A stretch of 64,000 bases of DNA, taken from IMG/VR virus record IMGVR_UViG_2541047857_000014, one strand, 5' to 3'. Below are positions 36,611 to 36,849 of the stretch, piece after piece. This DNA is from a virus. Taxonomy: Duplodnaviria > Heunggongvirae > Uroviricota > Caudoviricetes. Both the position numbers and the translations under genes were made by a program. The notes under the pieces were generated by a model. That model saw nothing but the letters and a program-made list of their open reading frames with translations. It did not search any database and had not been told where the DNA came from. Numbering within the stretch: position 1 is the first letter of the stretch; each line of letters opens with the position of its first letter.

Positions 36611-36630
36611 TACTGTTTATTTACACAGAT
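36611..36630. promoter_or_regulatory. LexA (SOS) box upstream of dinI-like pseudogene
   Basis: taCTGTttatttacACAGat fits CTGT-N8-ACAG. Confidence 0.65.
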
Positions 36631-36671
36631 AAGAATAATACTGTCTACAAACGCAGTACAAAAGAAGTGTT

Positions 36672-36849
36672 ATGCGTATTGAGATCTCCATAGCCAAAGA
36701 CAAAATGACCAAATGCCAAACGGCGCTGTGGACGCGTTAAAGGAAGAATTAACCCAACACATTGGCAAGCGTTATGACGATGTGGAGATGATCGTAAAAG
36801 CCACCAGCAACGATAGTTTTTCAGTTAGACATACTGCAGATAAAGATTG
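36672..36849 (+). pseudogene. dinI-family gene disrupted by frameshift and premature stop
   Basis: Frame 1 gives [16 protein letters not shown] then stop at 36738; a shifted frame continues [37 protein letters not shown], DinI-like. Confidence 0.5.

Follow-up and report, generated by a model that had tools for sequence, protein, structure and literature searches.

Background

DinI proteins bind RecA filaments, as has been established for DinI of Escherichia coli K-12, and structural work on the K-12 protein gives its C-terminal acidic helix a role in RecA binding. E. coli normally carries dinI on the chromosome, and we take the K-12 operator to be ACCTGTATAAATAACCAGTA. Prophages have homologues of their own. 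In the Gifsy prophages of Salmonella they head operons controlled by LexA, and deleting them has no significant effect on induction (PMC3121763). The 3' end of the gene can be of use by itself as well: in Klebsiella it is processed into DinR, an Hfq-dependent sRNA (PMC10907235). The closest relatives of the locus discussed here belong to coliphages. Phage mEp460 (gp21, "RecA filament binding protein DinI"), Lys8385Vzw (dinI), PhiR63_1, phage cdtI and the Stx phages all have the same unit of about 400 bp. In its intact form this cassette has a TTGACA -35 hexamer, tandem LexA boxes (CACTGTTTATCCATACAGTT and TACTGTATACAAACACAGTA), a GAGGGA ribosome-binding site, a gene of 82 codons, a 3' UTR of about 105 nt and a strong intrinsic terminator.

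This work will focus on a degraded copy of that cassette in a stretch of 64,000 nucleotides of tailed-phage DNA, which we call the window. A preliminary description, made from the letters of the window alone, had reported a LexA box in front of a DinI-like gene broken by a frameshift, and left it open whether the break was decay or an assembly error. We believe with high confidence that the locus is the remnant of the LexA-repressed promoter-dinI-terminator cassette of lambdoid coliphages and that its gene is dead. The argument rests on intact cassettes for what has been lost, and on other E. coli genomes for whether the loss is real.

The dinI gene and its lesions

We fetched the intact cassettes of mEp460, Lys8385Vzw and PhiR63_1, aligned them with the window and read them at the level of codons. 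Intact homologues in lambdoid coliphages are 81-84% identical in DNA to window positions 36605-37010. The features recognized in this way are collected in Table 1.

Table 1. Features of the dinI locus and its left flank, in window coordinates
Feature	Position	Strand	Details and basis
tRNA-Pro 3' fragment (anticodon loop to CCA)	36385..36432	+	att-type remnant, not a functional tRNA; alignment
Terminator-like hairpin after the tRNA-Pro fragment	36441..36468	+	11 pairs, then a T-run
Sigma-70-type promoter, predicted	36607..36636	+	-35 TTGATA 36607-36612, 18-nt spacer, -10 AAGAAT 36631-36636
LexA box 1, TACTGTTTATTTACACAGAT	36611..36630	+	Overlaps the -35 hexamer and spacer; pattern scan and weight matrix
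LexA box 2, TACTGTCTACAAACGCAGTA	36639..36658	+	Just 3' of the -10; degraded; TACTGTATACAAACACAGTA in intact phages
Degraded ribosome-binding site	36662..36667	+	AAGAAG, GAGGGA in intact phage copies; alignments
dinI-like pseudogene, full ancestral extent	36672..36919	+	82 codons with one base restored; PGAP, phage alignment, Pfam DinI
A3 run, site of the 1-bp deletion	36709..36711	+	A4 in intact copies; phage alignments, base-by-base reading
TAA closing the 22-codon N-terminal ORF after the frameshift	36738..36740	+	ORF reading
In-frame TGA in the DinI frame	36848..36850	+	TCA (Ser) in intact copies; phage alignments
In-frame TGA	36887..36889	+	TGG in intact copies, the first Trp of the C-terminal W-E-S-A-D-E-W-F motif; phage alignments
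TTG (Leu) replacing TGG	36905..36907	+	Second conserved Trp; phage alignments
3' UTR with intrinsic-terminator hairpin	36920..37012	+	Stem 36973-37006; U-tract shortened to UUU

The reading frame is as it had been described. It opens with an ATG at 36672, 41 nt past the LexA box, and meets a stop after 22 codons; the DinI-like sequence then goes on in the +2 frame, in an ORF at 36713-36850 that overlaps the first. Alignment with the phage cassettes, base by base, supports the claim that this is an SOS-regulated gene decayed by a frameshift. Where intact copies read ACTAAAATG the window reads ACCAAATG, and the frame shifts after codon 14; a homopolymer indel had been suspected near 36715, which is essentially where the missing A lies. 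The internal ORF of 45 codons has an ATG start and could in principle be translated, though it is without a ribosome-binding site. The proposed membership in the DinI family also holds up. Once the missing base is put back and the stop codons are masked, the protein scores 37.8 bits on the Pfam DinI profile (PF06183; cut-off 24.2), where the intact mEp460 protein scores 70.9. A full-length alignment of the repaired protein with K-12 DinI shows 36% identity (E = 2e-13).

The frameshift was correctly recognized, but the extent of the decay was understated. Two TGA codons, the change from Trp to Leu, the degraded Shine-Dalgarno sequence, the weakened -35 hexamer and the damage to a second LexA box had all been missed; box 2 itself was absent from that description, as was the homology beyond 36850, which runs through both in-frame TGA codons to the ancestral stop, TAG, at 36917-36919. 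The C-terminal motif, TWESADEWF in intact copies, is T*ESTEELF here (the asterisk is a stop), so both tryptophans are gone. A continuous frame of about 80 codons behind a ribosome-binding site is lacking, given the frameshift, the two TGA codons and the change of the Shine-Dalgarno sequence from GAGGGA to AAGAAG, and the gene is therefore a pseudogene of the PF06183 family and not a functional member. Because of the two TGA codons no single-base correction could restore the dinI frame. The capacity of this locus to encode DinI is destroyed. Public annotation has already recorded as much: RefSeq/PGAP lists window 36672-36889 in strain S88 as a pseudogene, "DinI-like family protein; frameshifted; internal stop". 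As prophage pseudogenes go it is ordinary, and a literature search on this particular one found nothing specific.

The ratio pN/pS is 0.23-0.29 between the window and the intact copies and 0.00-0.03 among the intact phage copies, a difference that fits a period of relaxed selection. It is important to realize that a ratio of about 0.25 is still below 1, since the window copy had probably done most of its diverging from the phage copies before it was inactivated, and that it is therefore not a clean test of relaxed selection.

The promoter and its LexA boxes

The predicted promoter matches 9 of 12 positions in a promoter scan and aligns with the annotated promoter of mEp460, whose -35 hexamer, like that of the other intact copies, is the stronger TTGACA. 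Box 1 looks like a LexA operator by its form, a CTGT-N8-ACAG palindrome with an AT-rich centre, by its score, which is in the range of known operators, and by its place, since it spans the -35 hexamer and the spacer while box 2 follows the -10. A weight matrix derived from 30 E. coli LexA operators gives box 1 19.5 bits, second-best in the window, where the median of the training sites is 19.7; 0.005 sites this good are expected per random 64 kb. The bare pattern is weaker evidence. CTGT-N8-ACAG occurs twice in the window (24849 and 36613) against an expectation of 0.86, and 15 of 100 shuffles also gave at least two.

The CTGT and ACAG cores of box 1 are kept in all 11 cassettes aligned or read. 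In the same 11 the CTG and CAG cores of both boxes are invariant, which is not statistically decisive, as by our own estimate the chance of seeing no core change is about 0.14. Outside its core box 2 has suffered more: it scores 12.5 bits in the window and 22.8 in mEp460, a loss of about 10 bits that leaves it at the bottom of the range of known operators, with 0.45 sites as good expected by chance. Judging from these scores, box 1 is probably still bound by LexA, and the weakened promoter probably still responds to DNA damage with a short transcript that is all but untranslatable.

The other LexA box belongs to the prophage on the left. It is the best in the window (CACTGTTTATATTTACAGTA, 24847-24866, 24 bits), with a weaker site of 14.4 bits overlapping it at 24832-24851. 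It heads an operon on the minus strand consisting of a 62-aa ORF (24617-24805), which has no Pfam match, and then an intact DinI-like gene (24373-24606) that matches Pfam DinI at 81 bits. The operon at 24373-24866 looks like the split tum-antirepressor/DinI arrangement of Fels-2 and PSP3 (PMC3121763). We considered a recent duplication of this gene as the source of the pseudogene and rejected it: the two have no detectable pairwise similarity and are distant paralogues.

The 3' UTR and terminator

The window copy has a deletion of 15 bp directly after the ancestral stop codon in the phage alignment. Its terminator folds at -15.2 kcal/mol and ends in UUU, compared with -20 kcal/mol (z = -3.6) and UUUUU in mEp460, and one pair of the stem is changed on both sides between copies (T-A and C-G). 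Similarity to the phage cassettes stops with the element at 36920-37012. Differences per site are 0.04-0.16 in the 3' UTR and 0.01-0.15 in the coding sequence, so there is no extra conservation. We looked for an sRNA like DinR in the 3' UTR and rejected it on this absence of excess conservation and on a fold beyond the terminator hairpin with z = -0.8. An Rfam search of 34000-39500 at a permissive threshold found no match in the dinI cassette; its only hit, within the downstream GmrSD gene at 38436-38510, is a sub-threshold match to the archaeal C/D-box RNA sR41 (23.7 bits, gathering threshold 54) that is almost certainly chance.

The 3' UTR/terminator element also has a distribution of its own. 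About 85 nt of it (window 36927-37012) occur without dinI in many E. coli genomes, for example at L006:3001-3081 and L007:3001-3086 among the loci we read. The stand-alone element often adjoins pinE, where the opposite strand has been given a 75-nt "capsid protein" fragment by PGAP, a spurious call. Degenerate versions of tRNA-Pro adjoin it, by eye, in MEI1-1023 and FT130 (L006 and L007, about 2900-3000). In FT130 the ssrA' junction sequence (window 33460-33530) is fused directly to the element (L007:3077-3140). An ssrA-type att arm was considered for the 85-nt element and rejected, as the true ssrA core follows it in FT130 only, among the loci read.

Genomic context

The window lies in the ssrA-glaH island of an E. 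coli that we take to be of phylogroup B2 type, and it contains tandem prophages. On the left, from position 1 to about 33490, is a 186/P2-like prophage whose right boundary is an exact copy of the 3' end of ssrA (tmRNA) at 33466-33490; in S88 the window begins some 600 bp to the right of the intact ssrA. No third ssrA' repeat was found to the right of the second prophage in S88 2873000-2886000. The 186-like prophage is probably defective because PGAP marks its gpA-type replication endonuclease gene (24959-27399) as frameshifted. An AIPR-family gene (12076-13776) is inserted among its tail and baseplate genes, and a hypothetical gene of 407 aa (32106-33329) sits between its integrase and the ssrA' repeat.

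Between this prophage and the tRNA-Pro fragment are cargo genes for a PD-(D/E)XK nuclease-domain protein and a GIY-YIG domain protein. The latter is LEM-3-like (35450-36223, minus strand), and a homologue 85% identical to it lies downstream of the same dinI pseudogene at proL in USMARC-50748 (L012:4599-5372, plus strand).

ARAGORN finds no tRNA in the window. From CC(A/G)TCATGGGG onward the tRNA-Pro fragment has the same sequence as the intact proL tRNA in other strains, and the hairpin after it matches the sequence downstream of intact proL bar one polymorphic base. The left flanks of the fragment in S88 and CFT073 are unrelated to each other. By alignment, this junction has the appearance expected of an attP-type site that has not recombined. 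Judged by eye, a diverged 5' half with a disrupted D-arm (tGGCACAtaACAGCC...) may precede the fragment; if that half is real, the whole stretch of 36350-36432 is a decayed full-length tRNA-Pro-like sequence.

The neighbours to the right are as had been described. A co-oriented gene with GmrSD_N and GmrSD_C domains, a GmrSD type IV restriction gene, follows the cassette after 260 bp (37215/37275-39164), and beyond it lie a truncated invertase, a 123-bp remnant of a pin-type recombinase at 39266-39388, and tail-fibre assembly genes. The remnant adjoins tail-fibre and tail-fibre-assembly genes of opposite orientation (39418-41672), and with so little of the invertase left the right-hand prophage can presumably no longer flip its invertible tail-fibre segment. 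That prophage is about 38 kb long, carries the e14-type genes ymfK, ymfL, ymfQ, ymfR, ymfT and tfaE, and has its integrase at the far right end. In PhiR63_1, an induced phage of ECOR13, dinI is the terminal gene and is followed by a pin-type recombinase and tail-fibre genes. From that gene order the pseudogene is best read as a terminal accessory gene at the left edge of the right-hand, e14-type prophage. What follows dinI' varies by strain: GmrSD; a GIY-YIG gene with an acyltransferase; DUF4236/DUF2971; hypothetical proteins; or YnaM/YdfK.

Population spread and alternative explanations

The simplest way to save the gene is to suppose that it is intact and that sequencing or assembly dropped one A from a homopolymer run. 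A 1-bp change in a short A-run is the classic form of such errors, and the preliminary description had allowed for one. The population data refute it. In 117 independent complete genomes, the work of many laboratories, the 901-bp stretch 36300-37200 is found at 99% identity or more, and in many E. coli chromosomes, including S88, UM146, IHE3034, NU14 and ATCC 11775 (phylogroup B2, we assume), it is 100% identical. A probe of 141 bp covering the promoter and the deletion site recovers this 5' haplotype from 250 of 5426 complete E. coli genomes, in all of them at 95% identity or more. Read base by base, eight chromosomal copies (the window, USMARC-50748, 2020N21-246-1, CFT073, Ec1115, T309.Ta3, EC554 and UK_Dog_Liverpool) all have A3, and three of three phage copies have A4. 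The eight share essentially one promoter haplotype, two of them differing by a single base, and they come from two chromosomal loci: proL, where dinI starts 242 bp past the intact tRNA-Pro, itself located after yejM, and ssrA, as in S88 and CFT073. PGAP flagged the gene independently, and a homopolymer error cannot create two TGA codons of the substitution type. The chance that the gene is really intact is negligible. The frameshift is genuine, old, and older than the lineage of the window. We searched for an ancestral, un-frameshifted copy on the same 5' haplotype; the candidates, variants of 99.3% and 98.6% identity, have their SNPs elsewhere and are all A3. The later lesions are specific to lineages: the S88 type has the two TGA codons, the 2020N21/UK_Dog type has a different TGA at the second Trp, and the CFT073 and Ec1115 copies have the frameshift only.

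A frameshift common to five diverged chromosomal copies might instead be kept for use, with the protein expressed by ribosomal frameshifting or by slipped-strand switching of the A-run, and the otherwise open downstream frame in CFT073 and Ec1115 is what programmed recoding would leave. The CFT073 copy gives a different answer. It has the pseudogene haplotype up to nucleotide 60 and no differences from PhiR63_1 after it; therefore homologous recombination inside dinI joined a resident dead 5' stub to incoming phage DNA. Such recombination explains the shared frameshift in diverged copies without programmed recoding, and, being recent, it explains the open frames in CFT073 and Ec1115. The site itself is no more helpful to recoding: ACC-AAA-TGC is not a slippery heptamer and does not qualify as a programmed-frameshift site, the Shine-Dalgarno sequence is degraded, and the downstream frame of the window copy has its two TGA codons. 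For phase variation a run of 3-4 nt is too short, and no A4 variant occurs on the haplotype among the eight copies. We regard recoding or switching as highly improbable. The third idea grants that the coding sequence is dead and keeps the unit alive, either by SOS-inducible read-through into GmrSD or through a regulatory RNA from the dinI 3' end. Box 1 scores well as a LexA site, the U-tract of the terminator is shortened, and between the cassette and GmrSD there is no plus-strand promoter match of 9/12 or better, only matches of 8/12. In 8 of 10 distinct contexts that we read, the window included, dinI and the first gene past the cassette point the same way, the pairing of dinI' with DUF262 recurs in EC554 beside a different integrase, and DinR is a precedent for an RNA processed from a dinI 3' end (PMC10907235). 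However, both the -35 hexamer and box 2 have decayed from the state seen in intact copies, the hairpin is kept at -15 kcal/mol, conservation of the 3' UTR does not exceed that of the coding sequence, and the region has no Rfam match. The 8/12 matches also amount to several weak promoter candidates upstream of GmrSD, and co-orientation is common at prophage ends anyway. A living unit of this kind is unlikely. It is improbable that the cassette transcript would pass the weakened terminator into GmrSD, and the fuller claim, that a live LexA promoter makes GmrSD damage-inducible by read-through or yields a 3'-end regulatory RNA, with the tRNA-Pro'-dinI' stub as an SOS-responsive anchor, is a little more doubtful than the idea of a living unit in general. 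If it were true, a variable cargo slot at the prophage end would have the conserved stub as its fixed, SOS-responsive anchor on the left.

History of the locus

We therefore return to the remnant of a phage cassette as the best explanation. In outline, lambdoid coliphages carry the self-contained cassette beside the integrase or at a prophage end. In the intact form the tandem LexA boxes overlie the promoter spacer and the bases that come directly after the -10, and DNA damage would de-repress the cassette and lead to a DinI-type protein of 82 aa. The old 1-bp deletion in the A4 run shifted the frame after codon 14. Later, on this lineage, the two TGA codons arose, both C-terminal tryptophans were lost, and the Shine-Dalgarno sequence, the -35 hexamer and box 2 decayed. 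The window locus can no longer make any DinI protein, and a damage-induced transcript would mostly end at the weakened terminator (36973-37009). The loss probably costs nothing. The 186-like prophage has an intact, LexA-boxed DinI-like gene, and there is normally a chromosomal dinI, which we have confirmed for K-12 only.

By itself this carries little weight; it adds another to the decayed accessory genes of prophage ends. It does offer a clean worked example in which population data were enough to separate a homopolymer indel from an assembly error. The combination of one frameshifted 5' stub with variable 3' parts also shows that homologous recombination inside dinI shuffles prophage ends between proL and ssrA, and the stub marks the left border of a variable slot whose cargo includes defence-type nucleases and uncharacterised genes (GmrSD, the GIY-YIG protein, DUF4236/DUF2971).

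Comparison with known systems

The phage cassettes are the same unit as that of the window, and the differences are those of decay. The window copy has the frameshift, two TGA codons, the Trp-to-Leu change, the degraded ribosome-binding site, TTGATA as its -35 and a damaged box 2, along with the 15-bp deletion after the stop and the shortened U-tract. The placement differs as well: the window cassette follows a tRNA-Pro fragment, whereas the phage cassettes come directly after the integrase gene.

K-12 DinI (b1061), an SOS-induced modulator of RecA filaments, belongs to the same Pfam family and length class (81-82 aa), with an N-terminal MRIE..IAK and a C-terminal acidic helix in common, and both genes are LexA-regulated, judging by sequence. 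The window gene is a phage-type paralogue and non-functional, in contrast to the chromosomal gene of K-12, and its ancestral phage cassette had two LexA boxes where K-12 dinI has one.

The dinI-antirepressor operons of Gifsy and the tum/DinI-like pair of 186, Fels-2 and PSP3 (PMC3121763) also have a prophage dinI homologue behind a LexA box and near a prophage end, as here. Unlike them, the window cassette is monocistronic: its terminator follows in about 90 nt or less, too close for an antirepressor ORF to fit, and the right-hand prophage has a LexA-family (CI-type) repressor, ymfK. In this window the 186-type arrangement belongs to the other LexA box, at 24847-24866. The window would have in common with DinR a LexA-controlled dinI transcript with a long 3' UTR and an intrinsic terminator, but there is no sequence relationship between them, and the pairing region of DinR is specific to Klebsiella (PMC10907235).
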